NCBI GenBank assembly: GCA_045630365.1
Contig: JAZQSZ010000121.1
Coordinates: forward strand, 1 to 37,383
DNA: 37,383 bases
Direction: 5' to 3'
From: Paludibacteraceae bacterium
GTDB lineage: Bacteria > Bacteroidota > Bacteroidia > Bacteroidales > Paludibacteraceae
Shown: one piece after another, positions 2,378 to 32,625 of the stretch
Layout: each line of letters opens with the position of its first letter
Numbering within the stretch: position 1 is the stretch's first letter
Translations under genes and position numbers: made by a program
Notes under the pieces: generated by a model
Seen by the model: the letters and a program-made list of their open reading frames with translations, nothing else
Told to the model about the DNA's origin: nothing
The model's database searches: none

Positions 2378-2755
2378 ATGAGTAATACTATATATAATTT
2401 CGAAGAATTGGTTATCTGGAAATTATCCAGACAATTTGTTCGCGAAATTTATCTTTTGTTCAAAGATACAAAAGATTATGGTTTTCGAGATCAAATTCAG
2501 CGCGCTGCAGTGTCTGTAATGAATAATATAGCAGAAGGATTTCAACGTAACAAGTTTTCGAAAGACAATAAGCAATTTGTTTATTTTTTGAACATTGCCT
2601 ATGGATCTTGCGCTGAAGTTCGAAATATGCTATATATTGCAGAAGATGTAAATTATATCTCGCCCAATATAAGCACAGAATTGCGTGACAATATCACTCG
2701 TATAGAATTTAAAATAGAGAACTTAATCAAAAAGTTACAACAACCAACAGATTAA
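2378..2755 (+). CDS. four-helix-bundle protein (23S rRNA intervening-sequence protein / Avd-like family)
   Basis: 125 aa. Family signature QIQRAAVSVMNNIAEGFQR and later YGSCAEVRNMLYIAEDVNYIS. Divergent paralog of the three minus-strand copies. Confidence 0.85.
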   Translation: MSNTIYNFEELVIWKLSRQFVREIYLLFKDTKDYGFRDQIQRAAVSVMNNIAEGFQRNKFSKDNKQFVYFLNIAYGSCAEVRNMLYIAEDVNYISPNISTELRDNITRIEFKIENLIKKLQQPTD

Positions 2756-2764
2756 ACAAAACCA

Positions 2765-3006
2765 ACGCTTTAGCCACTTTCATGAGCGCAGCGAATCACC
2801 TTCGCGCAGCCACAAACGTGAGCGCAGCGAACCACTTTCATGAGCGCAGCGAATCACTTTCGTGAAGCCATAGACATGAGCGCAGCGAATCACTTTCGTG
2901 AGCGCAGTGAACCACCAACGCGAAGCAAAGCGCAGCCATAAACGTGAACGAAGTGAACCACTTTCGTGAGCGAAGCGAACCATAAACGTGAACAAAGTGA
3001 ACAAAA
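2765..3006 (+). repeat. degenerate ~22-nt tandem repeats (downstream flank of 4HB gene), same orientation as 2262-2377
   Basis: About 11 units of cactttcRtgagcgcagcgaaYc type, running up to the DUF1846 start codon. Confidence 0.8.
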
Positions 3007-4520: not shown

Positions 4521-4800
4521 TTTCTACCCTGATCTTTGTTTAACAAAAATACGCTTCGTTTCACTCCGCTACAAAAATATACAAAAATCAGTTGTTTGTT
4601 ATGTTATTAAGTCAAGAATGTTAAGAATAGTTATGAATATTTCTATTGTTATATTTTGTCTTTGCTCTGATGTGCAACTTTTAGTTGCAGGGAGAGCAAA
4701 AACAAATGTAATTCTTCTATCTGTCATTTTGTTTAAGTCATCCATGCAGGGACTGCATCTATATGACTACAAACAAAAAGGTTCGTGTCTACATAAGAAA
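4494..4800 (+). repeat. intergenic repeat family B, copy 1
   Basis: Shares a conserved block of about 110 nt (aacaaaaatacgcttcgtttcactccgctacaaaaatatacaaaaatcagttgtttgttatgttattaagtcaagaatgttaagaatagttatgaat) and two hairpins with copies at 6290 and 9905. Confidence 0.75.
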
Positions 4801-4843: not shown

Positions 4844-6151
4844 TCATAGCATTTCATTCAACAAAAATGGTATAACACCTATATATGTCACTCCATCGGC
4901 ATCTGTCCATTGTTTGCTATTACCATACAGAACAACTATCTTACGATGAAAATCTTGAGTATTTCTCAACGAAAATGTTTCTTGGTTCTTCTTTTCCTCT
5001 GTATCTACATTCAGAGCAGATTGAATGTATATTTTCTCCGAACCAGTATTGACTACAAAATCTATTTCGTATTGTGATTGGACTCGCTTACCATCTAACA
5101 TCCGCTCTACTTCTACAACTCCCACATCCACACGATAGCCACGACGCAAAAGCTCGTTATATATCATATTTTCCATTAAATGCGAACGTTCTTGTTGACG
5201 AAAATTAATTCGGGCATTACGTAAACCTAAATCGCAAGCATAATACTTCTTGATGGTATTAAAATAGCGTTTCCCTTTTACATCATATCTGTCTGCTGAT
5301 GCCAGCAAGTATGAATCCTCTAAATAATCCAAATAAGTTTTTATCGTACGGTCTGATGTGTTACGTCCTAACACAGAACCTACCGTATTTGCCAGTTTAT
5401 GAGGGTTTGTTAACGAACCTACAGAAGAATATATCGCATCAGTCAATGAGTCTATTATCACATCATCCCGCAACTTATACCTCTCTACGATGTCCTTAAT
5501 ATACACATTTTTGTGTAAATCAGCTAAATATTGCTGTTTCGCAGTTTCATTATCTTCAAGAACAGCTAATGGCATTCCTCCGTATGTAAGATACATCTCA
5601 AATGCGTCCGTTTTTTCTAAGCCAGCATAGGTGTAATACTCTTTGAATGATAGGGGATATACTTTAATCTCGCAACCTCTATCACGAAATTGAGTTACAA
5701 TGTCCTTTGATAACATTTTCGAGTTGCTACCTGTAACATATACGTCCAAATTCTGTTGCATACGCAAATCGTTCAGCACATCATAGAACGTAGTATATAG
5801 CAGTTCGCGATCCTCTTCAGCAACAGCAGATTCATCAATATCTGAATTTTTAACTTTATAACTCAGTTGTATTTCATCAATAAAGACATAAAATTTCCTT
5901 CGCTTATCCTTAGTTCGTTCTATAACATATTCATATAGTGTATTCGGATTACGATATAGACTATCTGATTTGCGCTCCAAATCAATCTCCACAAAACAAC
6001 TATCTTTTACGCCTTGTTGTTTTAGATAATGTTTATATAACGTGGACAATAAAAACGACTTTCCACTTCGTCGTAATCCTGTAATTATCTTTACTTTACT
6101 ATTCCAGCTCTTGGAAACAAGTTGTTTGATATAATCATTCCTTTCGATCAT
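4844..6151 (-). CDS. AAA-family ATPase with DUF4143-type C-terminal region (AAA_14/DUF4143 architecture)
   Basis: 435 aa. Walker A GLRRSGKSFLL and Walker B YVFIDEIQ. Same architecture as 20790..22043, and it has its own canonical promoter at 6214-6245. Confidence 0.8.
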   Translation of the reverse strand: MIERNDYIKQLVSKSWNSKVKIITGLRRSGKSFLLSTLYKHYLKQQGVKDSCFVEIDLERKSDSLYRNPNTLYEYVIERTKDKRRKFYVFIDEIQLSYKVKNSDIDESAVAEEDRELLYTTFYDVLNDLRMQQNLDVYVTGSNSKMLSKDIVTQFRDRGCEIKVYPLSFKEYYTYAGLEKTDAFEMYLTYGGMPLAVLEDNETAKQQYLADLHKNVYIKDIVERYKLRDDVIIDSLTDAIYSSVGSLTNPHKLANTVGSVLGRNTSDRTIKTYLDYLEDSYLLASADRYDVKGKRYFNTIKKYYACDLGLRNARINFRQQERSHLMENMIYNELLRRGYRVDVGVVEVERMLDGKRVQSQYEIDFVVNTGSEKIYIQSALNVDTEEKKNQETFSLRNTQDFHRKIVVLYGNSKQWTDADGVTYIGVIPFLLNEML

Positions 6152-6289: not shown

Positions 6290-6875
6290 GGTTAATGTTT
6301 TATAACAAAAATACGCTTCGTTTCACTCGCTACAAAAATATACAAAAATCAGTTGTTTGTTATGTTATTAAGTCAAGAATGTTAAGAATAATTATGAATG
6401 TTTCAGTTGTTGTACTTTGTTTTGCTCTGGTGTGCAACTCGTTGCAGGTAGAGCAAACCACAAGTATTTGTTTTCATCTAATCTTTTGTCTTGCTCACCA
6501 ATGCAAGGTATTGCATTTATTTGAGCAAAGACAAAAATGATCATGTTATTCTTATTTATTTTTAAAGCGCAGCGTATTCTTGACCAAATTACTTTTTAAC
6601 AAGAATGTTAAGAATAGTTATGAGTATTTCTATTGTTACATATCTGCGTAACTTTTTTGTTTGTAGTCACCAATGCAGCATGCATTCTTATGACTAAAAA
6701 CAAAAATATGTTCTTGATTTTTAATTATTTTTATAGGCATCTCTAAGATGCCGTATTTATGTTTCTACTCTGATCTTTGTCTAACAAAAATGATCATGTA
6801 TATTCTTATTTATTCTTAAAGCGCAGCGTATTCTTGAGTAAATTAATGTTTAACAAGAATGTTATGAATAGTTAC
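6290..6875 (+). repeat. intergenic repeat family B, copy 2 (two tandem modules)
   Basis: 6295-6400 matches 4540-4645. 6650-6875 matches 10085-10325 almost base for base. Confidence 0.8.
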
Positions 6876-6983
6876 CTATAGCCAATCGCCCATTGCCCAT
6901 CACCTCTCCACTCTACACTCTACACCTCTCCACTCTACACTCTACGCCCTTACACTCTACACTCTACACTCTACACCCTACAC
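6876..6983. repeat. heptamer-periodic array (GCCCATW then CTACACY flavour)
   Basis: ctatagccaatcgcccattgcccatcacc...ctacactctacactctacaccctacacc. Supplies the TAG stop of the DUF354 gene. Confidence 0.85.
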
Positions 6984-8027: not shown

Positions 8028-8100
8028 AATTAGCGTAGAGCGTAGAGTGTAGGGGGTAGAGGCGATGGGGTTGTGTTTTCTACAGTTTTACACGCTACGC
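8028..8100. repeat. heptamer-arm palindromic element (RGTGTAG orientation), left flank of 4HB gene
   Basis: gcgtagagcgtagagtgtagggggtagaggc + gatggggttgtgttttctacag + ttttacacgctacgc. Confidence 0.75.
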
Positions 8101-8106
8101 TATTGA

Positions 8107-8466
8107 TTATTCTTTATATTTTGATCGTAGAGCAGATAGTTGTCTTGCTATACAATCTATTTTCTCTTCGATTTTATTATATTGTTCTTGTGTTAGATAT
8201 CCAAGTTCTACTGACACGTCCAATTGACTATCCACCTCCATCATAGATGCATACGCAATTCCAAGGAAGTGAGTTTTTTCTTTGTCCGACATCCTATTCA
8301 TGCCTTCGGCTATATTAGATGTAATAGATATCACAGCTCTACGTATCTGATCACATAGTGCATATTTCTCTTCAGTTGGAAAAAGTTTCAGCAGTTTGTA
8401 TACATCCACCACCAAACTCTTTGCATCTTGATACACATTTAAATTCTTGTACGAATACTTATTCAT
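8107..8466 (-). CDS. four-helix-bundle protein (23S rRNA IVS / Avd-like family)
   Basis: 119 aa. KLFPTEEKYALCDQIRRAVISITSNIAEGMNR. Flanked by inverted heptamer arrays at 8028-8100 and 8467-8750. Confidence 0.9.
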   Translation of the reverse strand: MNKYSYKNLNVYQDAKSLVVDVYKLLKLFPTEEKYALCDQIRRAVISITSNIAEGMNRMSDKEKTHFLGIAYASMMEVDSQLDVSVELGYLTQEQYNKIEEKIDCIARQLSALRSKYKE

Positions 8467-8750
8467 TATCCTTGTTAATATAAATTCTACACTCTACACC
8501 TTACACCCTACACCTTACCCCTACACTCTACACCTCTCCACCCTACACTCTACATTCTACACCCTACACTCTACACCCTACACCCTACACCCTACACTCT
8601 ACCCCCTACACCCTACACTCTACACCCTACACTCTACACCCTACACTCTACACCCTACACTCTACACCCTACACTCTACACCCTACACTCTACACTCTAC
8701 ACCCTACACTCTACACCCTACACTCTACACCCTACACTCTACACCCTACC
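8467..8750. repeat. long CTACACY heptamer array (about 40 units), right flank of 4HB gene
   Basis: Near-perfect alternation of ctacacc/ctacact over about 280 nt. It is the reverse complement of the 8028-8060 arm. Confidence 0.95.
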
Positions 8751-9900
8751 CCCGTTTCAACAATTTTACTCCTATTTTTCCAATCCAATATAGTAGTGGT
8801 TTGCGAACGCAGAGGAATCTGCCATGCTCCACTAGTTCGCCTCCGAACTTCGCTTTAAAATCGCGCACACCGTAGGCTTCTTCGGGTTTACCGGCTCCCA
8901 TCATATCAAATATCTTACATCCGTTTTCCGCTGCATATTTGATACCTAAGTAGGTAGCGTAGGTCGATGGATAGATATGCGGATATACGCCATCTATGCC
9001 ACAGGCAAACCATTCGTAGAGGGCTTTGCCTTTGAGTTCCATGCAGACTGTTCCGCCGACTATTTTACCTTCTAGCTCTGTGAGAATAAACCGCGCATCG
9101 GGGCAGCGATAGAGTTGCTCAAACCATTCCCAACGGAACAATGGTGTCTTGACTTTGGTCTTGTATAGGTCCAGGAGAATATCGTAGTAGGCACGTACTT
9201 GCTCTATGGTAGGTTGATATACGGGAGTCACGCCATCGCGGATGGTGGTGCGTATGTCACGCTTACGACTTTTGCCTAGGTTCTGGTCCACCACCTCAGG
9301 TGAGGATGTATCCACATGGAAGTTCAGGTGGGGTTGGTAGGCGTAGCCGTTGGTTTCAAACACTGACTTCCAACGACTATAGTCGTGGAAGTTGCGTGTT
9401 TCTATGTAGATTGGTGTAGGGCGTAGGGCGTAAGGCGTAGAGGCAGATGTTACAGCTCCGCTGTTTTCATTGCCTTTACACTCTACACTATACACTCTAC
9501 ACTCAGCAACTGCTTTCATCAGTGCTGATAAAGCAGTTGCGCTAATATCCTCTGCCAATAATGGTCCACCGATGATGATAGCGCGGCATGTAAGGTATTG
9601 CTTGATTGTATTAGTTTCTTTCGTGATATACCCGACGCATACGCCTTTGAGAGATGGTGTATGGGCGGATGATTCAACTTCGTTGGTTTCATTGCCTATA
9701 GCCCATTGCCCATTGCCCATTGCCTCTGAGTCGCACTCTTGCGACTCTACCACTCCCACCGCAAACGGCATCATCTCGCTAACAGAGACATAGAATTTAT
9801 ATGCTTCTGGTGTTTGAAACCATGTAGCAGTCGCAGAACTTTGAACAAGTTCCTGCCATTGTTGTTGGTCAATTTGTTCGTATGTTAGTATTTTTACCAT
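8746..9900 (-). CDS. FemAB-like / GNAT-fold peptidyl- or aminoacyl-transferase-like protein
   Basis: 384 aa. The length and C-terminal segment (YEWFACGIDG, DFKAKFGGELVEHGRF) resemble FemAB/BioF2-like acetyltransferase families; the function call is tentative. It carries two in-frame palindromic-element insertions. Confidence 0.55.
   Translation of the reverse strand: MVKILTYEQIDQQQWQELVQSSATATWFQTPEAYKFYVSVSEMMPFAVGVVESQECDSEAMGNGQWAIGNETNEVESSAHTPSLKGVCVGYITKETNTIKQYLTCRAIIIGGPLLAEDISATALSALMKAVAECRVYSVECKGNENSGAVTSASTPYALRPTPIYIETRNFHDYSRWKSVFETNGYAYQPHLNFHVDTSSPEVVDQNLGKSRKRDIRTTIRDGVTPVYQPTIEQVRAYYDILLDLYKTKVKTPLFRWEWFEQLYRCPDARFILTELEGKIVGGTVCMELKGKALYEWFACGIDGVYPHIYPSTYATYLGIKYAAENGCKIFDMMGAGKPEEAYGVRDFKAKFGGELVEHGRFLCVRKPLLYWIGKIGVKLLKRG
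9412..9503 (-). repeat. in-frame palindromic element (arm-core-arm) inside FemAB-like CDS
   Basis: Arm ggtgtagggcgtagggcgtaaggcgtagagg, core cagatgttacagctccgctgttttcattgcc, arm tttacactctacactatacactctacactc. Encodes ECRVYSVECKGNENSGAVTSASTPYALRPTP. Confidence 0.8.
9652..9724 (-). repeat. in-frame palindromic element inside FemAB-like CDS (GCCCATT arm)
   Basis: The core atgattcaacttcgttggtttcattgcc is followed by tatagcccattgcccattgcccattgcc. Encodes AMGNGQWAIGNETNEVESSAH. Confidence 0.7.
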
Positions 9901-9904: not shown

Positions 9905-10325
9905 TTGATTTATGTTTTATAACAAAAATACGCTCCGTTTCACTCCGCTACAAAAATATACAAAAATCAGTTGTTATATTTTAAGTCAAGAATGTTAAGA
10001 ATAGTTATGAATACCTATTGTTATATTTTGTCTTTGCATATAGGAAGCAACCCGTTGCTTAAGTATGCAAAACAAAATATTTTCTATATCTGCGTAACTT
10101 TTTTGTTTGTAGTCACCAATGCAGCATGCATTCTTATGACTAAAAACAAAAATATGTTCTTGATTTTTAATTATTTTTATAGGCATCTCTAAGATGCCGT
10201 ATTTATGTTTCTACCCTGATCTTTGTTTAACAAAAATGATCATGTATATTCTTATTAATTCTTAAAGCGTAGCGTATTCTTGACTAAATAAGTGTTTAAC
10301 AAGAATGTTATGAATAGTTACCTAT
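9905..10325 (+). repeat. intergenic repeat family B, copy 3
   Basis: Same module order as 6290-6875. Confidence 0.8.
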
Positions 10326-10385
10326 AGTCAATAGCCCATCGCCTCTACACCCTACACTCTACGCTCTACACCCTAGACCCTACAC
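10325..10385. repeat. heptamer array at 3' end of GT4 gene
   Basis: cctatagtcaatagcccatcgcctctacaccctacactctacgctctacaccctagaccctacac. Supplies ESVGSRV plus the stop. Confidence 0.8.
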
Positions 10386-11412
10386 TTTCATATATTTCTA
10401 CAAGGCGACTTGCCACTTGTTCGTTAGAGAGTCCCATTTCAATAATTTTCTCTCGACCATTAGTCTTGCCTTCGAATGCGATGGCTTGAAGTAGTGCTTG
10501 CGCAATATCCTTTGGATCACGAGATGGAACCACATAACAGCCTTCCACTCCACTCGTTCGTTCTGCCACATCGCCTACATCCACACTCACGATTGGACAT
10601 CCGCATGCCATGGCTTCTTTGATCACTTGTGGACTACCTTCTGTCTTGCTAGTCATGAGTAGCGCATCGCAATTATACATCAACGCATTTACCTGATCAC
10701 GATTATATCCTTTGAGTTCGATGAGGTTGATGGGGCGATTGTATTCATCGTCTATTGCCCATTGCCTATTGCCCATTGCCAATAGCCCATTACCCATAGC
10801 CGAATTATAACAAGCAATTGCCTCTTTTGCAAGTTCTGGATCCTTCACCGCATTGTCAAACGCACCTGCAAATAGTACATTTTTAACATCTTTGCTCAAT
10901 ACGCTCTGGACCCACTGATTAAGAGTCAGTAGTCCTACCAACTGATTTTGCATTTCGCTCCAAGGTCTTGGAAGGTTTATGCCGCAGGGAAGAAGGGTGC
11001 TACGCTTTTGGGGGCAATTGCCCATTGCCCATTGCCCATAGCCCATAGCCAACTCAACATTCTTCTTAGATACAAAGATATTATGCGCAGAAAGGCGCAT
11101 AGCTATTTTGGAGATGCGCAGGATACTGGGCACATTGATATCGCTTCCATGATAAGTAGTCACTACAGGTGCTATACGTTGCAGGTTTGCTAATAATCCG
11201 CATAGTCCATAGTGCGCATGGATGATATCAGGGCGTTCTGCACGGATAAAGCGTCGTAGTGCAGGTAGCTCACGCAGGTAGCCGATGATACCTTTGCCGG
11301 TTACGCCATAGCGTACTATCTGCACGCCGCAAGCCTCAAGGGCAGCGATCTGCTCCTCGATGAAAGGCACGAAGTGACCGCCTTTGTCGGATGCTATGAT
11401 TAGGAGTTTCAT
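10366..11412 (-). CDS. glycosyltransferase family 4 (GT-B)
   Basis: 348 aa. C-terminal GT4 signature TSKTEGSPQVIKEAMACGCPIVSVDVGDV. Two in-frame GCCCATW-repeat insertions give peptides AMGNGLLAMGNRQWAI and AMGYGQWAMGN. The start overlaps the stop of the upstream 4HB gene (ATGA). Confidence 0.85.
   Translation of the reverse strand: MKLLIIASDKGGHFVPFIEEQIAALEACGVQIVRYGVTGKGIIGYLRELPALRRFIRAERPDIIHAHYGLCGLLANLQRIAPVVTTYHGSDINVPSILRISKIAMRLSAHNIFVSKKNVELAMGYGQWAMGNCPQKRSTLLPCGINLPRPWSEMQNQLVGLLTLNQWVQSVLSKDVKNVLFAGAFDNAVKDPELAKEAIACYNSAMGNGLLAMGNRQWAIDDEYNRPINLIELKGYNRDQVNALMYNCDALLMTSKTEGSPQVIKEAMACGCPIVSVDVGDVAERTSGVEGCYVVPSRDPKDIAQALLQAIAFEGKTNGREKIIEMGLSNEQVASRLVEIYESVGSRV
10729..10801 (-). 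repeat. in-frame GCCCATW heptamer insertion in GT4 CDS
   Basis: gatggggcgattg...attgcccattgcctattgcccattgccaatagcccattacccatagcc. Confidence 0.7.
11010..11050 (-). repeat. in-frame GCCCATW heptamer insertion in GT4 CDS
   Basis: ggggcaattgcccattgcccattgcccatagcccatagcc. Its junction ttgcccccaaaa resembles the 3' junction of the 4HB gene at 11409. Confidence 0.7.
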
Positions 11413-11798
11413 TTTTGGGGGCTATTGGCGATTGGCGATTGGCTATTGGTTCGTTGAGATTTTAAGGAACGAATCATTTTACCTATCGAATTTATTTCTA
11501 CATCTAACATTTGTCTCATTTCCTTAGATATGTAACCCAAATCTAGCGAAATATCCAATTGACAATCAATTTCCATTAAAGAACCATATGCTATATCCAA
11601 GAAGTGAGCTTGCTCCTTAAGTGCTGTACGAGATAAACCTTCTGCGATATTGGAAGGAACTGATATAACAGCCCTACGCATTTGATCCCCCAACGCATAC
11701 TTTTCTTCTGCAGGAAAATGTTTTAACAAAGCATATACCGTCACAACTAATTGCCGTGACTTTGCGTATACATCTAATTTTTTATAACTATTGTTCAT
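11409..11798 (-). CDS. four-helix-bundle protein (23S rRNA IVS / Avd-like family)
   Basis: 129 aa. KHFPAEEKYALGDQMRRAVISVPSNIAEGLSR. The C-terminal tail TNSQSPIANSPQK is encoded by the heptamer arm. Confidence 0.9.
   Translation of the reverse strand: MNNSYKKLDVYAKSRQLVVTVYALLKHFPAEEKYALGDQMRRAVISVPSNIAEGLSRTALKEQAHFLDIAYGSLMEIDCQLDISLDLGYISKEMRQMLDVEINSIGKMIRSLKSQRTNSQSPIANSPQK
11413..11450. repeat. heptamer arm, left flank / C-terminal tail of 4HB gene
   Basis: tttgggggctattggcgattggcgattggctattgg. Confidence 0.8.
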
Positions 11799-11811: not shown

Positions 11812-11908
11812 TAGCACCTATAACCCATCGCCCATAGCCAATTGCCCATAATCACCAATCACCCATAGCCAATAGCCAATCGCCCATAGCCAATAGCCCG
11901 AATGATTT
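11812..11908. repeat. heptamer arm, right flank of 4HB gene (inverted relative to 11413-11450)
   Basis: cctataacccatcgcccatagccaattgcccataatcaccaatcacccatagccaatagccaatcgcccatagccaatagccc. Confidence 0.85.
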
Positions 11909-19222: not shown

Positions 19223-20380
19223 TCACTTAATCAGCGCTTGCTTCACCGCACTCCCCCACTTCATCACCTGTCTTTTTGCTTTTAGCATCCATATTGGTGT
19301 TTTGTATGTTCGTTTCACGCTCTCAGGCTGCTTACTCCAATCTACTTTCGCCAGTTCTTGAGTCGCTATACCGTGATACTCCTTGCTTAGCCAATATTCG
19401 AGCAGGCCGTTGACGCGAAGTTTGTCTAGCAAACGACGCCAATCGTCGTTTGTTGGTTTATAGGTTATAGGTGATAGGTTATAGGCATTGGTATCGGCTT
19501 TGCTGATTTCCTCACCTTTAATCTTTAAACTCTCACCTATAGTCTCCTCCATGCGGAAGAGCATATGATGCTCTGGAGCATGGAGATTTCTCGTCGCTCT
19601 CAATGTAGCAGGTACATCATTATTATACCATGCTAATGCTTCGTTTAAGAATGCCACTTTATATTGCATTGCTATCTTTGACCATAGCAAGAAGTCTTCA
19701 CCAAGTTTAATACCCAAAGGAAATCCTCCCACTTCTTTAAACACCTTACGTGGAACGGCAACAGAGATAGACGTAACAGGCATAGAATCACCTTCGTAAT
19801 AAGCCTTTGGGTAATTGAAATATCCTGTTTCTATGTTATTAACGGCAACACGTGTTTTACCAGGTTTGTAATACACATAGTTGCATGCATATAGTCCCGC
19901 CTCTGGATAATCCTCAATAAGCTTCGCCATCTTCTCAAGGTAGGTAGGTTCCCACCAGTCGTCGGCGTCGAGGAAGGCGATGTAGTCGCCGCTGCTAGCC
20001 GCTACGCCCGAATTGCGGGCTGCGCTGACGCCAGCGTTCGATTGAGTGATCAAACGAACGCTAAGTTTATAGTTTATAGGTGATAGGTTAGAGGTAATTA
20101 GTTTATAGTTTATAGGTGATAGGTTAGAGGCATTGGTTTCAGCTTCGCTGTCTTCCTCGCCTTTAACCTTTAATCTATAACCTTTAACCTCATCTCTCTC
20201 GCCTTTAACCTTTAATCTTTCATCTATAAACTGTTGAACTATACTAGCAGAGTCATCCGTTGATCCATCGTCCACAACGATGAGTTCGTAGTCGGTATAT
20301 GTCTGTGCAAATACAGAATCAAGCGCCTTACGGATGTAAGGTGCTTTGTTGTACAGTGGTATGATGATCGAGAATTTCAT
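19223..20380 (-). CDS. glycosyltransferase family 2, interrupted by two in-frame palindromic elements
   Basis: 385 aa. FSIIIPLYNKAPYIRKALDSVFAQTYTDYELIVVDDGSTDDS, then a 56-codon repeat-encoded insert before GVSAARNSG...FLDADD. Confidence 0.85.
   Translation of the reverse strand: MKFSIIIPLYNKAPYIRKALDSVFAQTYTDYELIVVDDGSTDDSASIVQQFIDERLKVKGERDEVKGYRLKVKGEEDSEAETNASNLSPINYKLITSNLSPINYKLSVRLITQSNAGVSAARNSGVAASSGDYIAFLDADDWWEPTYLEKMAKLIEDYPEAGLYACNYVYYKPGKTRVAVNNIETGYFNYPKAYYEGDSMPVTSISVAVPRKVFKEVGGFPLGIKLGEDFLLWSKIAMQYKVAFLNEALAWYNNDVPATLRATRNLHAPEHHMLFRMEETIGESLKIKGEEISKADTNAYNLSPITYKPTNDDWRRLLDKLRVNGLLEYWLSKEYHGIATQELAKVDWSKQPESVKRTYKTPIWMLKAKRQVMKWGSAVKQALIK
19455..19542 (-). repeat. in-frame palindromic element in GT2 CDS
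   Basis: Arm ggtttataggttataggtgataggttatagg, core cattggtatcggctttgctgatttcctcacc, arm tttaatctttaaactctcacctatag. Encodes SLKIKGEEISKADTNAYNLSPITYKP. Confidence 0.85.
20063..20230 (-). repeat. in-frame palindromic element (duplicated arms) in GT2 CDS
   Basis: Left arm duplicated (agtttatagtttataggtgataggttagagg x2), core cattggtttcagcttcgctgtcttcctcgcc, then a long CTTTAAC/CTATAAC arm. Encodes KVKGERDEVKGYRLKVKGEEDSEAETNASNLSPINYKLITSNLSPINYKL. Confidence 0.85.
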
Positions 20381-20412
20381 TCTCTCTTAGTTTAAAGTTT
20401 ATAGGTTATAGT
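20381..20412. repeat. heptamer arm (TTTATAG flavour) downstream of 4HB gene
   Basis: tctcttagtttaaagtttataggttatagttt. Confidence 0.75.
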
Positions 20413-20772
20413 TTATAGGCAAGGGTTACGCTTTGCACGGAGCGATGATAACATTTTACCTATTTCATTAACCATTGTTTCTATTTGTTTGTAATCTTCG
20501 ATTGTTATATATTCTAAATCTTTTGCGATATCCATTTGAGCAAGTACCTCCATCAAAGAACCAAAAGCAATATTGATAAAATGTGCTTGTTCTTTTTCAG
20601 CAGTACGCCCCATGCCTTCTGCAATATTGGACGGAATGGATATTACAGCTCTACGCAGTTGATCGCACAAAGCGAATCTTTCATCTGCAGGAAATCCTTT
20701 TATTTTAGCATATACCAACTTAACCAAATCTTTGGATAATTGATATACTATTAAATTCTGAAAATGTGCCAT
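20413..20772 (-). CDS. four-helix-bundle protein (23S rRNA IVS / Avd-like family)
   Basis: 119 aa. KGFPADERFALCDQLRRAVISIPSNIAEGMGR. Confidence 0.9.
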   Translation of the reverse strand: MAHFQNLIVYQLSKDLVKLVYAKIKGFPADERFALCDQLRRAVISIPSNIAEGMGRTAEKEQAHFINIAFGSLMEVLAQMDIAKDLEYITIEDYKQIETMVNEIGKMLSSLRAKRNPCL

Positions 20773-20822
20773 TTCTTCTAGTTTATAGGTTAAAGATTAG
20801 AGGTTAGAGGCGATGGGCCTAA
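20773..20822. repeat. heptamer arm between 4HB and AAA ATPase genes
   Basis: ttcttctagtttataggttaaagattagaggttagaggcgatgggcc. Supplies the ATPase C-terminus and stop. Confidence 0.75.
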
Positions 20823-22043
20823 CATCCAATCTATTACATTTAATTTACGGATTCCATCATAAACTGGATTAAAATCCATATCCGTAGTCAATAAATACTT
20901 TGGATTTGAATCTTTGATTGCTTTCAATGAAGCCAATTCTCTCTCCAATGTTTCTTGGTTTTCTGTAGTCCAAGCCACTTGGTAATAAGATGTATAATCT
21001 TGGTTATCAATCACCACAAAATCTACCTCTAGATTATTACGTTTTCCTATAAACACTTCCTTGTTGCGACGAATCAATTCGAGATAAACCATATTCTCCA
21101 ACCAATGAGAGCGGTCTTTAAGTACACCTTTTTTTAACCTAACTTTGGCAAAAGCAGGATCCACGACATAATACTTATTCAAAGTTTGCAGAAGTCCTTT
21201 ACCCTTAATCTCAAATCGTGGGACTTTGTAGATTAAATAAGCCTCGCATAATGCATCAAGGTATTTTGCTACAGTCTGTTTATCTACAATTGTGCCATTC
21301 GATCGTAACGTATCAGATATAGAACGTGGAGAAACATACGAACCCACACTATCTAACACAAAGTCCAATATCTTATTAAAATCGTGCTTGTTAGTTATAT
21401 TCAAACGTTGAAAGATATCCTTTTCAACAATTGTTGTCAATATACTTTGAACAAACATATTAGCTTGTTTCTCACTAATAGCCAACTGTTTAGCATATTC
21501 AGGAATACCACCATAATGGATAAAATTCGCCAAAATATCATTTTTTGACAAGTTTGGCGATTTTTCAATTGTAAATCCATAATATTCAGCAAATTGCAAA
21601 GGTAGAAGATTAATCTCTACATAGCGACCTGTAAGTAATGTTGCTAATTCACCAGAAAGCATATATGCATTGGAGCCAGTAATATATACATCCACATTGG
21701 ATTTAATATACAAACTATCTACCAGACGCTGAAAATCTTTTACATTTTGAATTTCGTCTAAGAAAATGTAATTAGGCTGGTTTTCTACCAAACGATCTTT
21801 GATATGTGTATGAACTTGGAAAATATCCCCAATAGCTAATGTATCCAAATCCTCAAAATTATAGAATTGTATTTGCTGCTCCTGCACACCGTTTTGCCTC
21901 AATTCTTCCACGAACATTAGCAACAATGTTGACTTGCCACATCTGCGCACACCGGATATCACCTTAATGATATTTTGATCTTTAAGGTCACGCAGCATTT
22001 GCATATACTGCTTTCGCTCTATTAAATTGTGATTATTAATCAT
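20790..22043 (-). CDS. AAA-family ATPase with DUF4143-type C-terminal region
   Basis: 417 aa. Walker A GVRRCGKSTLL and Walker B YIFLDEIQ. The C-terminal GPSPLTSNL and the stop are encoded by the heptamer arm. Confidence 0.8.
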   Translation of the reverse strand: MINNHNLIERKQYMQMLRDLKDQNIIKVISGVRRCGKSTLLLMFVEELRQNGVQEQQIQFYNFEDLDTLAIGDIFQVHTHIKDRLVENQPNYIFLDEIQNVKDFQRLVDSLYIKSNVDVYITGSNAYMLSGELATLLTGRYVEINLLPLQFAEYYGFTIEKSPNLSKNDILANFIHYGGIPEYAKQLAISEKQANMFVQSILTTIVEKDIFQRLNITNKHDFNKILDFVLDSVGSYVSPRSISDTLRSNGTIVDKQTVAKYLDALCEAYLIYKVPRFEIKGKGLLQTLNKYYVVDPAFAKVRLKKGVLKDRSHWLENMVYLELIRRNKEVFIGKRNNLEVDFVVIDNQDYTSYYQVAWTTENQETLERELASLKAIKDSNPKYLLTTDMDFNPVYDGIRKLNVIDWMLGPSPLTSNL

Positions 22044-22044
22044 T

Positions 22045-22154
22045 TTATTTACTAGCTTTTAATCTCTAACCTATCGCCTCTAACCTCTAACCTATAACCT
22101 CTCACCTATAATCTTTAACCTATAACCTATAATCTATCACCTATAATCTTTAAC
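22045..22154. repeat. heptamer array (CCTATAA/CTTTAAC), inverted relative to 20381-20412
   Basis: taatctctaacctatcgcctctaacctctaacctataacctctcacctataatctttaacctataacctataatctatcacctataatctttaacc. Confidence 0.9.
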
Positions 22155-23153
22155 CTATAACCGAAACCATTTCTCTAACTTGAAAAGCACTCTCTCCACA
22201 AAATACACCAACGGATACAACTTCCATCTCCTCAAGCGCTTCATCTGCTCCATTTCAAACGCATGCGTATCATAATCCCACAGCACCGCTGGTGGCATCA
22301 GTTCCTCCAATACTTGTCTTCTCTCTTTATTTCGCAACGCTAGATTGGTCTCACTTATTCCCCCATCATCAAATATCGTCACATCTATATCCACATACAC
22401 TGGTTTCACTCTACCCAATCCTATCGCTTGCAGATACCACTTCCAATCACTCACAATCTTCAGACTCTCATCATACAAGCCATATTCTTCAAACAGATCC
22501 TTGCGGATATATGCACAATCATGGTTAAGGGTTGATTGATAGAATTGACATAACGAATACTCGGTATAACCACTTTTACCTACTATTTGACCAGCGGCAT
22601 TGACTTTCGTCATGTTGCCGTAGAAAATTGGTGTATTTAGTTTATAGTTTATAGATGATAGGTTATAGGCATTGGTATCAGCTCTGCTGTTTTCTTCACC
22701 TTTAATCTTTAAACTATCACCTTTAATCTCAGCGCATTGCGCAGCAAGCGCTGCCATCATTCTCTCAGTCACATCAGGCGCAGCCAATATATCGCCTGAA
22801 TTTAATATCTGAATATACTCCCCCGTCGCCATCTTAATGCCTTTATTCATGGCATTGTAAATGCCCTTATCCTTTTCGGATACCCATATAACCTTATGCG
22901 CAGGATTTTGGTGTGGATAGTCTTCCTTGTTCCCTTCTGCGCAGGATTTTAGCGAGGCATCTATCTCCCCTTCTTTCAGGAAGGGGCTGGGGGTAGGCTT
23001 GTAGATCTCCAAGACCTCTACCGACCCATCGGTGGAGCCACCATCTACAATAATATGTTCGATATTGGGATATGTTTGTGCAGCAACAGAGGCGAGCGTT
23101 TTGCGCAGTCCTTCGGCGTTATTGTAGTTGATGGTTATGATGGAGAGTCTCAT
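22155..23153 (-). CDS. glycosyltransferase family 2 with in-frame repeat insertions
   Basis: 332 aa. LSIITINYNNAEGLRKTLASVAAQTYPNIEHIIVDGGSTDGS. Insert peptides are PSPFLKEGE (GC hairpin) and IKGDSLKIKGEENSRADTNAYNLSSINYKL (palindromic element). Confidence 0.85.
   Translation of the reverse strand: MRLSIITINYNNAEGLRKTLASVAAQTYPNIEHIIVDGGSTDGSVEVLEIYKPTPSPFLKEGEIDASLKSCAEGNKEDYPHQNPAHKVIWVSEKDKGIYNAMNKGIKMATGEYIQILNSGDILAAPDVTERMMAALAAQCAEIKGDSLKIKGEENSRADTNAYNLSSINYKLNTPIFYGNMTKVNAAGQIVGKSGYTEYSLCQFYQSTLNHDCAYIRKDLFEEYGLYDESLKIVSDWKWYLQAIGLGRVKPVYVDIDVTIFDDGGISETNLALRNKERRQVLEELMPPAVLWDYDTHAFEMEQMKRLRRWKLYPLVYFVERVLFKLEKWFRL
22636..22730 (-). repeat. in-frame palindromic element in GT2 CDS
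   Basis: Arm tttagtttatagtttatagatgataggttatagg, core cattggtatcagctctgctgttttcttcacc, arm tttaatctttaaactatcacctttaatctc. Confidence 0.85.
22965..23002 (-). repeat. GC-rich hairpin motif inserted in-frame (ccccttc...gaagggg + ctggggg)
   Basis: ctccccttctttcaggaaggggctgggggtagg encodes PTPSPFLKEGE. A related copy at 13372-13412 encodes LPFRGGFRRGF. Confidence 0.6.
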
Positions 23154-27889: not shown

Positions 27890-28005
27890 GTTCACATTTT
27901 GTTTTGCTTCCCCAAATGCGACATAATAGAGCAAAACACAAAAGTGGTCATGTTATTCTTAATTATTCTTAAAGCGCAGCGTATTCTTGACTAAATAAAT
28001 TCCAG
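27890..28005 (+). repeat. intergenic repeat family B, partial copy 4
   Basis: Hairpin gttttgct...agcaaaac followed by acaaaagtggtcatgttattcttaattattcttaaagcgcagcgtattcttgactaaat, matching 6520-6590. Confidence 0.7.
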
Positions 28006-28054
28006 TACGTAATTACCACCTAATTCTCCCACTCGCGACATCTATGATATAGAT

Positions 28055-28094
28055 ACAAAAAACACAGGACAGCAAAATTTTGCTGTCCTGTGTT
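28055..28094 (-). terminator. intrinsic terminator of sigma/primase operon
   Basis: Perfect palindrome aacacaggacagcaaaattttgctgtcctgtgtt, followed on the minus strand by TTTTGTATC. Confidence 0.75.
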
Positions 28095-28139
28095 AATTAA
28101 ATCATCCTGAAATCCTGCACTTTGCAAATCGCATCGACT

Positions 28140-28847
28140 TTACACTTTACACTTTACGCTTTCTAACTGCCTCAAAGCAATATCTCTAATCTGCCCGACT
28201 CGCTCCTTACTTACGCCTATCAACATCGCCACTTCTTGCAGACTCATAACATCTCGCACCCCCATTCCATACAGCAATTGCACTACCATTCTCTCTCGTC
28301 TCGGCAACTGTTTCAATGCGGCATAAACACCCTGCTTTATTTCCTCGCTAATCATCATGTTTTCTGCCGACTCATATGACGCACTACCTAGCACATTCGT
28401 CTCATCCACTACCATATCGGCATGACAAATATACTCCTCGTCATCTTCAAACACTTTACTATCCAGCATCAGCAACTCCTCTGACTTATTTTGCACAAAT
28501 AGCAATATCCTGTTCTTGATACACTCTGTGGCAAAACTAGCAAAACTATATCCTAACGACGCATCAAAGCAGTCTACCGCTTTTATCAGTCCGATATTGC
28601 CCTCTTGTATCAAGTCCAACACCTCTGCTTTATGCCTAAATTTTGAGTTTTTCGCCATACTCACTACCAGTCGTAAGTACGACTCTATTAGCACCTTTCT
28701 GGCTTCCATATCACCTTGACTCATACGTTCTATTACTGCGTATTCTTCTTGTTCAGTTAACATTTTGTATCTTGCCACTTCCTGTGAATACCAATCCAAT
28801 GGCGACTTCTCTGCTTCAAAATTCATAATACTTAATTTAAAATTCAT
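28140..28847 (-). CDS. sigma-70 family RNA polymerase sigma factor (non-ECF, group-3-like size)
   Basis: 235 aa. Region 2 LRLVVSMAKN...DLIQEGNIGLIKAVDCFD and region 4 LPRRERMVVQLLYGMG...LQEVAMLIGVSKERVGQIRDIALRQL. The start could instead be M8 at 28826. The C-terminal VKCKV and the stop come from a heptamer arm. Confidence 0.85.
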   Translation of the reverse strand: MNFKLSIMNFEAEKSPLDWYSQEVARYKMLTEQEEYAVIERMSQGDMEARKVLIESYLRLVVSMAKNSKFRHKAEVLDLIQEGNIGLIKAVDCFDASLGYSFASFATECIKNRILLFVQNKSEELLMLDSKVFEDDEEYICHADMVVDETNVLGSASYESAENMMISEEIKQGVYAALKQLPRRERMVVQLLYGMGVRDVMSLQEVAMLIGVSKERVGQIRDIALRQLESVKCKV

Positions 28848-29172
28848 AATTCATAATTCGTAATTCAATTTTCTCTCCGCGCTTTAGCGCTTTCTTTACC
28901 CGTTGACGCACTCTTTGGTGCATCTCTTTGGTTTTCAACACTAATCCCTTTAGTTCATAGACTCCCAAAGAAATCTCTCCTTTCACGCTTTTCATAGGTC
29001 CATTACCCTGCATAAAATATCGGTTAAAGTCCTTCTTCGTCACTTTGTATTCCCCGCACGGTCGATGTTTTGCAGGATGCTCTACGGTGTCACAGACTTT
29101 CTTGCCGTTGATATGGCATTCGCCATCAACGCCCCAACTGGAGAAATGTTTTCGTTTGATTTCAATATTCAT
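28837..29172 (-). CDS. hypothetical protein (possibly DUF5675-like)
   Basis: 111 aa. The pattern WGVDGECHINGKKVCDTVEHP...CGEYKV recalls DUF5675-type proteins; this is from memory only and is weak. Confidence 0.5.
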   Translation of the reverse strand: MNIEIKRKHFSSWGVDGECHINGKKVCDTVEHPAKHRPCGEYKVTKKDFNRYFMQGNGPMKSVKGEISLGVYELKGLVLKTKEMHQRVRQRVKKALKRGEKIELRIMNYEF

Positions 29173-29215
29173 AATTTTTAGTTTAGTGTTGAGTGTTTAG
29201 TGTTGAGTGAAGTTA
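29173..29215. repeat. heptamer arm (GTGTTKA flavour) between hypothetical gene and primase
   Basis: tttagtttagtgttgagtgtttagtgttgagtgaagttaagag. Confidence 0.7.
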
Positions 29216-30122
29216 AGAGTTGAGAGGTTGACCAAAGGTCGCTGAAGTCTTTACAGGTGGATGGAAGTTGATGCCTCACCAACTGCGGCAACCTCTTCTG
29301 CAATTCCCAGAACAACCGCTCCCCCGGTTCATCCTGGTCCGGATACATATGCAGATTCAGTCCTTTCAGCGGCACCAGATCCTCCTCCTTCAGCATACTA
29401 GCAGATGGTATCGCTATTGCTTTCCTGCCCGATGACAACATCGCCCAGCAGTCCGAACAACCTTCCGTTATCCACAACTCCTCGCCTGGGTATAACAATC
29501 TCAGCACCTGCAGGTTATATACATGACAACTCGCACCTCTCGGAAACCGAAATCTCGGTTTATCCTCCTTACCCAAGTACCGCGACTGCACACTCATCAA
29601 ACTGCCATCTGCACCATAATACGGTATCAACAACGATGGCGCATCGTAGAATGCTTTTCCATACCGCCAGCAGGGTGTAGGCACATCTATCGAACTCAAT
29701 CGGCACCATCTCACCACGCGCTCATCTATCCGCCTACTAGCCAACCACTCCTGTGCTTCCTGGTTCAGTTTCGGTATCGCCACCAGACTCTGCAGATAAG
29801 GCACATCTGCCTTATATTCCTTACTTTTCGCCACTTCGTTTATTTGCCTCATCGCCTCAAATACCATCGGTCCTCCAAGCCATTCACACGCTTCCTTAAA
29901 CCCACATCCTTTCAACCCCATCACCATATCTATCACTCCCCCGTGCGCATCGCATACGTAACATCTATACCGATTCCTCCTTGTGTCAAAACTCAAACTT
30001 GGATGTCTATCCTCGTGCCACGGACAGCGACTTTTGTGTCTTATTACTTGCAGACCTAATCGTTCTGCTACCATCTCGATCGGAGTATTATTCAACTCCT
30101 GTATTTTCCATTTCTCTATCAT
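29178..30122 (-). CDS. DNA primase-like protein (CHC2 zinc finger + Toprim)
   Basis: 314 aa. CPWHEDRHPSLSFDTRRNRYRCYVCDAHGGVIDMV is a DnaG-type CHC2 finger. LWITEGCSDCWAM...YPDQDEPG is Toprim-like. Confidence 0.85.
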   Translation of the reverse strand: MIEKWKIQELNNTPIEMVAERLGLQVIRHKSRCPWHEDRHPSLSFDTRRNRYRCYVCDAHGGVIDMVMGLKGCGFKEACEWLGGPMVFEAMRQINEVAKSKEYKADVPYLQSLVAIPKLNQEAQEWLASRRIDERVVRWCRLSSIDVPTPCWRYGKAFYDAPSLLIPYYGADGSLMSVQSRYLGKEDKPRFRFPRGASCHVYNLQVLRLLYPGEELWITEGCSDCWAMLSSGRKAIAIPSASMLKEEDLVPLKGLNLHMYPDQDEPGERLFWELQKRLPQLVRHQLPSTCKDFSDLWSTSQLLTSLNTKHSTLN

Positions 30123-30157
30123 AGTTCTTTATTGTTCTTATATTCAATTTGTTGTCT

Positions 30158-30215
30158 ACCTTCCGGTAGCCATTGCTGCTCCTCGCAACCTCTTAGCCCT
30201 CTATCTGCGATGCTT
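30158..30215. repeat. ~58-nt conserved non-coding block, copy 1 (upstream of primase)
   Basis: accttccggtagccattgctgctcctcgcaacctcttagccctctatctgcgatgc, compared with 36165-36222 acctgccggtagccattgttgttcctcgcaacctgtttgacctttatctatgatttt. Confidence 0.75.
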
Positions 30216-30283
30216 TTCCCGCCTCTCGCCTCTCGCCCATAGCCCCTCGCCCATAGCCAATAGCCAATAGCCTCTCGCCCATC
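30216..30283. repeat. heptamer array (CTCGCCY/GCCCATA/GCCAATA)
   Basis: ttcccgcctctcgcctctcgcccatagcccctcgcccatagccaatagccaatagcctctcgcccatc. Confidence 0.8.
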
Positions 30284-31609
30284 TCACACCTTCTCAAAAG
30301 TATTCTTATCCACCTCACGTATCACCCTCATCTTTCGCCACATGTATAGGAATACTCTTGACGGGGTTGTTAAACCTAATTCCTCAATTTTCAGATTCAA
30401 CTGATCTCTCGTAAACGGACTAGTCAATTGCTCAAACAATATCGGTTTCGCTTGCACCATATGACTCAAATCACGCTTCTGGTTCAACTCGTCAAACGAC
30501 TTTCCCCAACGATTCAGCATACTATTCAAGGTATATTCTGCCATGTACAAGTAGATCTTCTTGCTGAGTTTCTGCATCTTATCCTCGCTGTAGGCACCTT
30601 CCAAGCGATACAGATAGTAGCACAGTGCCGCCACACGAAAAGCTGTTACACTACTACGCTTACGAAACACATCCAAGGACTTATTTCCCGACAATGCCGC
30701 CTCTTGTCCCTTCTCTTTAATCCATTTACAGATCGTTTTATTCAGCCATGACATATCCAAATCCACCACAGGCTGCAACCCGCCATCCTCGTCATAGGTC
30801 TCGCTCATCAGATGACTCAACATACTGTCTATCCTCTTCTTCTGCTCCGGACTATACGGAATAAATATTGCACCTTCCTGACCCAAATCATCGTCCAGTG
30901 GACACAGCAGACAGCGGGTCACATTACCGCCCTCGATAGCCTTCTTGTCGTAATAGTCATCGACCGCCGAAGGAGTGGCGCAGAACATCGAACAGATGTT
31001 GATATCCACTATCGCCGAATACGAATTTTCAGAGGCAAAGTCGATACCGAACTGCGAACCCAAGTCATATGCGGTACGCATAATTGTTCGCAGGTTTGAA
31101 TAGCCCTGTTTGCCCGCATCCGTCACTTGCGCCAACTCCTCGGCAAACATCCAGAAGGTCAAAGTATCCTTCAATACTCGCTGAAACATATCCGCACGCT
31201 TGGTCAACACGGTCTTCGATATAGTCGCAGGCACCACTCGGATGGTCGTCTGTGGTTCTTCACCAACCTTCTCGTTTGCTCGTCTGCGTTTTTTGAGTTC
31301 TCGGTACTCCTGTTCAGCACGACGCATCGCTTGGTCTTTGAGTTTCAGGGTTTTGTCCATGATAAGTGACTCGATATCGGCGGCAAACGACTTACCGGAT
31401 GACTGTGCACCTTCTATCAGTACTTGTAGCAGCAATGCTGATGGTCGGCTGTCGTAGTAATACTGCAACCTGACTCTGCTGCATAGTGCACATAGGGGTG
31501 ATAAACTGGCCACGAAGGCGGGTACTTTTCTACTACTGGGAGCGTTGCTCACGATCTCCCTAATTATCGCAGGTAATTCCTGGTCTTTTGGTAAAACGAA
31601 TGTATTCAT
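30284..31609 (-). CDS. P-loop protein associated with primase (DUF3987-like?; helicase/loader candidate)
   Basis: 441 aa. Walker-A-like GAQSSGKS. Sits immediately upstream of the primase. The family assignment is tentative. Confidence 0.55.
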   Translation of the reverse strand: MNTFVLPKDQELPAIIREIVSNAPSSRKVPAFVASLSPLCALCSRVRLQYYYDSRPSALLLQVLIEGAQSSGKSFAADIESLIMDKTLKLKDQAMRRAEQEYRELKKRRRANEKVGEEPQTTIRVVPATISKTVLTKRADMFQRVLKDTLTFWMFAEELAQVTDAGKQGYSNLRTIMRTAYDLGSQFGIDFASENSYSAIVDINICSMFCATPSAVDDYYDKKAIEGGNVTRCLLCPLDDDLGQEGAIFIPYSPEQKKRIDSMLSHLMSETYDEDGGLQPVVDLDMSWLNKTICKWIKEKGQEAALSGNKSLDVFRKRSSVTAFRVAALCYYLYRLEGAYSEDKMQKLSKKIYLYMAEYTLNSMLNRWGKSFDELNQKRDLSHMVQAKPILFEQLTSPFTRDQLNLKIEELGLTTPSRVFLYMWRKMRVIREVDKNTFEKV

Positions 31610-31626
31610 AATTCTCTGATTATCTT

Positions 31627-31944: not shown

Positions 31945-31945
31945 A

Positions 31946-32326: not shown

Positions 32327-32391
32327 AACTTTATAATTTTAAATGATTAGTAATTTCTTAACACGAAATTCATGATTCAAATTTTCGAACC

Positions 32392-32421
32392 ATTTTCTAC
32401 TACAAAGGTATTAAACACTAT
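32392..32421 (-). promoter_or_regulatory. candidate promoter of the replication/sigma operon
   Basis: On the minus strand: TTTG, N18, TAccTTTG. The spacing is 1 nt short of the usual 19-21. Confidence 0.4.
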
Positions 32422-32606: not shown

Positions 32607-32625
32607 CACCCTCAAATGATTAAGC

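Follow-up and report, generated by a model that had tools for sequence, protein, structure and literature searches.

The window analysed here, a 37,383-nt stretch of DNA from a Paludibacteraceae bacterium (contig JAZQSZ010000121.1), contains four small open reading frames (ORFs) at 2378-2755 (+), 8107-8466 (-), 11409-11798 (-) and 20413-20772 (-), which an earlier note had assigned to the 23S rRNA intervening sequence (IVS)/four-helix-bundle (4HB) protein family. The assignment was verified by profile searches, as all four products matched both PF05635 (E values from 4e-30 to 4e-37; 104.7-127.1 bits against a cut-off of 33.8) and TIGR02436, "four helix bundle protein" (103-117 bits against a cut-off of 24). 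Alignment of the four paralogs showed R43, S47, N51 and E54 to be invariant, and the RxxxSxxxNxxE motif is thus present in all of them; the family motif has been given as GxxRxxxSxxxNxxE (PMC3936711), and its leading G is replaced by Q in the window paralogs. The nearest solved structure to the focal 119-aa protein, the product of the 8107 gene, is 2gsc (XCC0516). The surrounding locus is a glycan biosynthesis cluster, and each 4HB gene lies between two co-oriented ORFs, wedged in sense between host genes just as had been described before. All four genes were confirmed to be enclosed by complementary arms, three of them by heptamer arrays and one by a 16-bp pair together with 22-nt arrays. The gene with its arms is referred to as a cassette.

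In the focal cassette, the 5' arm (8487-8753, minus strand) consists of about 38 tandem heptamers reading GTGTAGR in mRNA sense (Tandem Repeats Finder, TRF: period 7, 38.1 copies of CTACACC, score 364), and its outermost unit contains the stop codon (8746-8748) of the FemAB-like gene upstream. An A/T-rich leader of 20 nt (8467-8486, -), recognised by reading the sequence, separates this arm from the start codon of the 4HB gene (8107-8466, -), whose 119-aa product matches PF05635 with E = 4e-37 and TIGR02436 with 117 bits and scores below the cut-off of the Avd equivalog. The 3' end of the cassette (8028-8106, -) comprises a short inner G-type arm (8080-8103), a core remnant that reads GAAAACACAACCCCATCGCC in mRNA sense, and a C-type 3' arm (8028-8060), where TRF returned 4.3 copies of AGCGTAG at 8032-8061. 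The two arms are inverted to each other and complementary by up to 87% over 30 nt, so that the inverted arms reported earlier around this gene are real. Folding of the cassette in mRNA sense gave a predicted stem of about 32 bp around the whole ORF (z = -5.5, with none of 20 shuffles as stable), and the short-array allele found in a related strain (L001) gave an enclosing-stem fold with z = -5.55. The 3' end can also form a local hairpin (z = -5.9), which is nearly invariant in 10 strains; the C-type 3' arm has, in the fold, two predicted pairings, either locally or with the long 5' array.

The second cassette carries its 3' arm within the coding sequence. Its 5' arm (11812-11908, -), made of GGCTATT/GGCGATT-type heptamers in mRNA sense, pairs in the predicted fold (z = -4.6) with 11413-11451, a segment that forms the last ~12 codons of the 4HB gene itself (11409-11798, -; 129 aa; PF05635), and arrays were called at 11419-11451 and 11815-11898. 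Both complementary arms noticed earlier at this gene were thus located, the left one within the ORF at its 3' end, and the stop codon does overlap the start of the downstream glycosyltransferase family 4 (GT4) ORF (10366-11412) as ATGA.

The third cassette opens with a G-type 5' array (22045-22162, -) of GGTTATAG / GGTTAAAG units in mRNA sense (TRF periods 14/21/35 at 22060-22162), followed by an ATPase gene with AAA_14 and DUF4143 domains (20790-22043, -; Pfam and PADLOC), which belongs to the PADLOC candidate defence family PDC-S01. The upstream palindrome houses this gene between the G arm and an internal C-type arm with the junction motif CCCATCGCC (20775-20815, -; array at 20783-20810), placed directly upstream of the 4HB gene (20413-20772, -; 119 aa; PF05635 E = 2e-36); a C-type 3' arm closes the cassette (20381-20419, -; array at 20389-20419). 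The earlier note had correctly placed outer arms around the 4HB gene and the ATPase together, and had missed the third arm (20783-20810) between the two genes. This layout of G arm, C arm, 4HB gene and C arm (20381-22162) recurs at two other loci (L121 and L126) and permits two mutually exclusive pairings, namely a local hairpin or a long gene-enclosing stem. The focal cassette presents the mirror layout, with a G array, the gene, a short G arm and a C arm.

The arms of the fourth cassette were absent from the earlier note and were found here. The upstream flank (2157-2377, +) contains mini-hairpin units (e.g. GGCACCTTCGGTGC) and then 22-nt units, and includes a 16-nt arm at 2214-2229; the 4HB gene (2378-2755, +; 125 aa; PF05635 E = 4e-30) is followed by a downstream flank (2756-3006, +) of 22-nt tandem units with the second 16-nt arm at 2766-2781. 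The two 16-nt arms form an inverted pair with 100% complementarity around the gene, the 22-nt arrays on its either side are direct, and the predicted fold closes around the ORF (z = -5.6). The mini-hairpin string (2157-2260, present also in the upstream flanks of L109-L117) has the spacer GAAAWTGG, and its stems differ between units and strains by compensatory changes (GGCACCTTCGGTGC, GCAAACCAAGTTTGC, GCGGCAAAGCCGC, GTCGCCGATGGCGAC). Several of these mini-hairpins have UUCG loops, reminiscent of the tetraloop stem-loops bound by Avd in the RNA of diversity-generating retroelements (DGRs).

The generality of the arrangement was evaluated in a one-genome-per-species scan with the four-paralog alignment, which returned 80 loci that are the best matches to one Bacteroidales-type protein and not a random sample of the family. 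These loci were distributed over Bacteroidota, Verrucomicrobiota, Kiritimatiellia, Clostridia, Chloroflexota, Acidobacteriota, Planctomycetota, Desulfobacterota, Actinomycetota, lineages of the candidate phyla radiation (CPR) and others, and mechanically called ORFs served as controls. The best genome matches to the 4HB protein, in Bacteroidales and Prevotellaceae metagenome-assembled genomes, had 56-60% identity. By simple detection, about half of the loci showed an upstream heptamer array with its reverse complement downstream, and the heptamer sequence was different in nearly every locus surveyed. The earlier note had raised the question whether 4HB genes adjoin heptamer arrays more often than other sites do, and the answer is positive: arrays occurred on both sides of 23 of 74 4HB genes and of 18 of 762 control ORFs (Fisher P = 1e-15), several of these 18 being further 4HB genes or their neighbours. 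Duplex energies calculated by RNAduplex on 220-nt flanks were uninformative, because any two long flanks give large energies, and were replaced by local alignment of inverted versus direct flanks, again with control ORFs. An inverted-flank alignment score of at least 30 was then observed for 53 of 73 4HB genes against 24 of 758 controls (Mann-Whitney P = 7e-30); for the inverted flanks a P value of 4e-33 was also obtained. Period-7 arrays were present in 23.8% of 4HB flanks and in 1.0% of control windows; periods 8 and 14 were weakly enriched and other periods were not. Co-orientation with both neighbours was the rule for 58 of 72 4HB genes (81%), compared with 455 of 857 controls (P = 4e-6).

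The geometry of the cassette was measured on the 51 clearest cases. The median arm length was 37 nt. On the inner side, median distances were 31 nt from the 5' arm to the 4HB start codon and 10 nt from the 4HB stop codon to the 3' arm; on the outer side, they were 8 nt between the upstream gene's stop codon and the 5' arm and 13 nt between the 3' arm and the start of the downstream gene. G exceeded C in the 5' arm in 45 cases (P = 2e-8), a property of the first arm that is the same on both strands of the palindrome; we infer that, whichever side is approached, the first arm encountered thereby contains many stop codons. Annotated plasmid-borne copies, as an independent set, were read by eye, and about nine of ten showed the cassette build, clearly in Anabaena, Nostoc, Pseudanabaena, Stanieria, Leptolyngbya, Gemmatirosa, Riemerella and Azospirillum and weakly in Calothrix; in the PCC 7120 plasmid copy the downstream array alone was clear. 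Two of the plasmid copies, from Anabaena sp. 90 (L119) and Pseudanabaena galeata (L121), lie between cas6 and cas4 with long heptamer arrays at their flanks. The 4HB family in cas loci has been treated as a functional association and called "CRISPR-associated" (PMC3936711); its presence in these operons looks like cassette insertion rather than CRISPR function. The same architecture was met in rRNA, between nrd genes and in purine operons.

Comparison of related strains, which had been proposed in the earlier note, returned both filled and empty sites. Empty focal sites, located by a metagenome scan with the neighbouring DUF354 protein, were found in four related lineages (L092, L093, L095 and L097), in which the stop codon of the FemAB-like gene abuts or nearly abuts the DUF354 start (e.g. 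TAAATG), with no arrays and no 4HB gene. An empty site for the 2378 cassette was found in L001, where the purF-like/DUF1846 junction is a 5-nt gap free of repeats. The 125-aa protein of this cassette occurs between purF-like and DUF1846 in the window and in nine other places listed (L110-L118), the flanks of four of which were read. In L109, an identical 125-aa protein sits with the mini-hairpin units and the 22-nt arrays between carB and purC, and the purF-like/DUF1846 spacer is an unrelated AT-rich sequence of 120 nt. Since the empty sites have neither component and L109 carries both at a new junction, these data show that the arrays and the 4HB gene are one physical unit, present or absent as a whole and recently relocated. 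At the third cassette, six strains have a complete element of G arm, core and C arm just upstream of the 4HB gene, with no ATPase; in the window and three other strains the AAA_14/DUF4143 ATPase gene is lodged inside this element (comparison of L099-L108). Strains with an identical 4HB protein have between about 5 and 38 units in the focal 5' array; the arrays grow and shrink, and these changes of length would arise by slippage. In nearly all of the ~40 strain places recovered the 4HB gene has the orientation of its neighbours, and no inverted copy was seen.

The founding members of the 4HB family are ORFs in the loop of an inverted-repeat stem of 23S rRNA IVSs, and one of the plasmid copies brings the two settings together. 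The Azospirillum lipoferum copy (L125) is a classical IVS: it is embedded in a 23S rRNA gene (2549 bits with the Rfam LSU model), and its ORF is unannotated because of this position; its arms are period-7 arrays and close a stem with z = -8.6. The architecture of the 4HB cassettes is thus shown to be identical with that of an rRNA IVS. In Coxiella burnetii, the IVS has a terminal-inverted-repeat stem of 28 bp, which is cleaved by RNase III and whose loop contains the S23p ORF, and two or three tandem GACAGAT heptamers, strain-variable in copy number, stand just upstream of the ORF (PMC4990558).

On this basis we favour, with a probability of roughly 0.55, the reading that 4HB genes are the cargo of IVS-type insertion cassettes in operons, whose arms would act on the RNA, looping the insert out or excising it. 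Each cassette consists of a PF05635/TIGR02436 ORF that presumably relies on host transcription and is bracketed by two complementary arms, usually tandem heptamer arrays, the 5' one rich in G and poor in C and the 3' one its complement. It sits in sense, exactly between the stop codon of a host gene and the ribosome-binding site of the next one or, in other organisms, in a helix of 23S rRNA. By analogy with the rRNA IVS, pairing of the arms in the host transcript would create a long stem with the insert looped out, and the flanking cistrons (upstream stop and downstream start) or the two rRNA halves could be rejoined spatially. By the Coxiella precedent, the stem might also be a target at which RNase III cuts the 4HB message away from the host RNA. 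Periodic arms can presumably pair in any register, and the stem would then tolerate indels and slippage; tandem repeats could be preferred for building arms because slippage leaves the stem intact. Judging from its homology with Avd, the 4HB protein, a pentamer, is likely to bind the repeat structure at its own flanks, which might serve processing, stability or propagation. Within the DGR ribonucleoprotein, Avd touches both RNA duplexes and a stem-loop capped by a tetraloop, and the template is flanked by a long-range duplex (bioRxiv 10.1101/2023.10.23.563531); binding to the repeats is a reasonable guess because Avd contacts RNA stems and the 2378 cassette carries UUCG-capped mini-hairpins.

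Several points weigh against the insertion-cassette reading. Arm mismatches at 36 loci showed no excess of G:U over A:C (38 versus 51), so that the complementarity of the arms could be maintained by a process at the DNA level; this speaks against selection acting on the RNA alone. A simple single stem does not explain the three-arm layouts of G arm, C arm, gene and C arm (20413, L121 and L126), nor the direct arrays at 2378 and L091. No mobility enzyme was identified for the cassettes, and no obvious target-site duplication was seen at the two junctions compared by eye. The presence of an ATPase gene as the cargo of a palindrome means that 4HB is not the sole possible cargo. Finally, Coxiella S23p has been argued to be probably not translated, with the RNA mattering more than the protein (PMC4990558).

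The main rival to the insertion-cassette reading draws on repeats that are not attached to 4HB genes. As a correction to the picture given in the earlier note, the flanks of 4HB genes are not the only places with heptamer arrays: about 30 are present in the window, many of them elsewhere and several in frame inside coding sequences. Among these are solo palindromes of about 99 nt, assigned to family D5, in which a conserved core, GAAGAAAACAGCRGAGCTGAWACCAATGCC, containing a CAGC/GCTG mini-hairpin, stands between a G arm and a C arm, the heptamers of the arms being variable. One of them (9405-9510; hairpin z = -5.6) lies in frame in the FemAB-like gene and differs or is absent in other strains; the FemAB-like protein has two hot spots with different insertions, or none, depending on the strain. 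A second, with duplicated arms (20064-20229), is in frame in the glycosyltransferase family 2 (GT2) gene 19223-20380, which holds a further copy at 19449-19547, and another (22630-22735) is in frame in the GT2 gene 22155-23153. Other solo sites are at 9694-9727, 10752-10801 and 11013-11052, the hosts of the solo elements including FemAB-like, GT2 and GT4 genes. The elements add peptide segments such as KGEENSRADTNAYNLS and represent an added source of protein-length variation in surface-glycan enzymes. To our knowledge, no transposase partner is known for them.

According to this rival reading, modelled on the REPtrons built from repetitive extragenic palindromic (REP) sequences, the 4HB protein itself would recognise heptamer hairpins, as DNA or RNA, and would generate, maintain or mobilise them, the solo palindromes being non-autonomous derivatives as REPINs (hairpin-forming REP pairs) are for the REP-associated tyrosine transposase (RAYT). 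The solo palindromes do share the CCCATCGCC/C-arm junction and the core with the cassette ends, and they are polymorphic by insertion and deletion between strains. Each heptamer type in the window clusters around the cassette of the same type, and arrays more than 600 nt away from a 4HB gene share its heptamer within one mismatch in 43% of cases against 6% in permutations, a null that was not matched for base composition, which counts against the weight of this comparison. The lack of any other mobility enzyme in the Pfam scan of the 36 larger window ORFs would also fit, as would the strong conservation of the protein across phyla: 17,947 clusters at 50% identity match one window 4HB protein. 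Against these points, the small helical bundle has no known catalytic motif and no transposase-like domain, and no covariation was detected between heptamer and protein sequence (Spearman -0.03; Mantel p = 0.23), which makes a simple recognition code unlikely. Moreover, three cassettes of one genome use three different heptamers, and at many loci the two arms are the only arrays within 20 kb. We therefore regard this reading as unlikely. The earlier suggestion that the 4HB protein is functionally tied to the repeats stands in part: the physical tie, the joint gain, loss and movement, and the heptamers shared with solo elements speak for it, and the lack of covariation and of a transposase-like domain speaks against it.

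A less probable view, to which we give little credence, sees a contingency module, in which hypervariable arrays tune or switch the adjoining surface-glycan genes through transcript structure and processing, with the 4HB protein as a passenger or a regulator. The roughly 8-fold spread in array copy number between strains and the position in a glycan biosynthesis cluster agree with it, and heptamer arrays within glycosyltransferase genes could shift the reading frame; as a precedent, heptameric-repeat phase variation in Haemophilus is reported to need an RNase III-targeted element in the 5' untranslated region (PMC12721329). However, every glycosyltransferase variant examined keeps an open frame, and the architecture is not specific to surface-glycan loci, being found also in rRNA and in cas, nrd and purine operons of many phyla.

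Weak similarity to Avd and the presence of inverted repeats bounding the gene might suggest a remnant or orphan part of a DGR, or an invertible DNA switch. Both readings were rejected as very improbable on the grounds of co-orientation and of the missing DGR partners. The window 4HB proteins reach just 36.8-47.8 bits with NF033474 (Avd equivalog, cut-off 80 bits) and 32.4-39.8 bits with PF22296 (bAvd, cut-off 40 bits), and the 2378 protein matches neither model. No reverse transcriptase, transposase or integrase domain was detected by Pfam in the 36 larger window ORFs, and no long direct repeat resembling a template repeat/variable repeat (TR/VR) pair was found in the window, in agreement with the absence of both partners noted before. 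As for a switch, 81% of the relatives are co-oriented with both neighbours and the strain places hold no inverted copy. Searches of the window for rRNA found none, with a single tRNA only, and no PADLOC defence-system model matched the 4HB proteins. Chance co-location, by which small genes landing in spacers rich in heptamer repeats would simply adjoin them, could appeal to the many arrays that lie away from 4HB genes in these 37 kb, and is excluded by the extreme enrichment at 74 loci from many phyla, by empty sites that lack both arrays and gene, and by arrays that travel with the gene to a new site.

Other repeated segments of the window were recorded alongside the cassettes. An intergenic module of about 130 nt occurs in three copies (4536-4662, 6297-6423 and 9915-10036), each with TACAAAAATATACAAAAAT, which by eye resembles a TAnnTTTG promoter motif of the Bacteroidetes type on the minus strand. 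A second AAA_14/DUF4143 ATPase gene (4844-6151) is bracketed by two of the copies, and its slot holds a Fic-like gene in L001 and is empty in L005. A non-coding segment of 287 nt, terminating in heptamer arrays, is duplicated with 94% identity (6640-6926 and 10086-10372) on the downstream side of the DUF354 and GT4 genes; it includes a 74-nt unit that is found four times in the window (at 6547, 6801, 10247 and 27954). The tRNA gene (36491-36564, +) lies inside the mechanically called ORF 36239-36964. The ~8 kb before it (28000-36500) encode a sigma-70-type factor, a primase-like protein with a CHC2 zinc finger and a DUF5131 protein, with heptamer arrays at gene boundaries, and may be an integrated mobile element beside the glycan locus.

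PF05635/TIGR02436 is a very large family, and we know of no function established for it outside DGRs since the discovery of the family in rRNA IVSs in the early 1990s. Recognition of the cassettes explains the scattered contexts of the 4HB genes and warns against annotation by association, because genes in the middle of operons are a source of error when they are read as functionally linked to their neighbours, as with the "CRISPR-associated" label (PMC3936711). It also connects these enigmatic proteins with heptanucleotide repeats, the over-representation of which was reported and left unexplained (PMC4692102), and predicts RNase III processing, looping-out of RNA that preserves the coupling of flanking genes, and repeat binding by the protein. 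The earlier note had believed the link between gene and repeats to be undescribed. This is not entirely so, as the heptamers beside the Coxiella IVS ORF were known (PMC4990558); the general rule outside rRNA was not found in the literature searched, and targeted searches returned no paper linking the 4HB family to heptamer arrays beyond the Coxiella one, which reports it for that single element. Within that literature, the complementary and mostly heptameric enclosure of PF05635 genes, their existence as operon cassettes and their mobility at the strain level appear to be undescribed.

A much wider proposal can be formulated, which we find doubtful and put forward tentatively. PF05635 cassettes might be a very widespread, unrecognised class of mobile elements whose protein acts on heptamer hairpins, and their spread and decay might yield much of the excess of heptanucleotide repeats, including the short tandemly repeated repetitive (STRR) sequences of cyanobacteria, the GGGAATC pairs of Xanthomonas and the in-frame solo elements; the 23S IVS and the Avd of DGRs would then be two specialised offshoots.

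Among known systems, the solo elements are comparable to the Rickettsia palindromic elements and to MITEs (transposable elements of the miniature inverted-repeat type), as they are short palindromes placed in frame in protein genes and polymorphic between strains; they differ in having arms made of variable-sequence heptamer arrays around a conserved core. The cassette arms themselves resemble published heptanucleotide repeats, which are likewise intergenic tandem heptamers and often convergent inverted pairs: the STRR of cyanobacteria, TAACTGA, reported in Beggiatoaceae, cyanobacteria and Bacteroidetes (PMC4679880), and GGGAATC, which forms 70 inverted pairs in X. campestris and occurs also in Nostoc (PMC4692102). 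Neither of these two papers mentions the 4HB/S23p family, and the repeats are found in the same phyla where 4HB genes abound, with cyanobacterial plasmid 4HB genes flanked by such arrays. The Avd of DGRs belongs to the homologous four-helix-bundle fold family and works in complex with a structured RNA, whose template is flanked by a long-range duplex; the window proteins, in contrast, score below the Avd cut-offs and are accompanied by no reverse transcriptase, template repeat or variable repeat.

REPtrons and REPINs share with the 4HB cassettes a small gene between inverted repeats; the many related gene-less repeats near the cassettes, with a repeat type common to the gene flanks and these copies, may be a further parallel. 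Unlike them, the cassettes have no Y1 transposase (RAYT), the enclosed genes being 4HB and one AAA_14 ATPase, their arms are tandem arrays instead of single REP hairpins, and the repeat sequence varies between cassettes of one genome. The ORF-bearing 23S rRNA IVS, as found in Leptospira, Coxiella burnetii and the Azospirillum plasmid copy, is the closer model. It has the same protein family in the loop and in sense with the host transcript, a stem built around the ORF by terminal inverted repeats (predicted for the window cassettes, with z from -4.6 to -5.6), tandem heptamers beside the ORF with strain-variable copy number in Coxiella, and a sporadic distribution suggestive of horizontal spread (PMC4990558). 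The window cassettes differ in lying between protein-coding genes of operons and not in helix 25 or 45 of the rRNA, in their far longer arrays of up to 38 units, and in their coexistence with solo palindromes, some of them in coding sequences. Cleavage by RNase III, demonstrated for the Coxiella IVS, would by this precedent be expected for the window cassettes as well.

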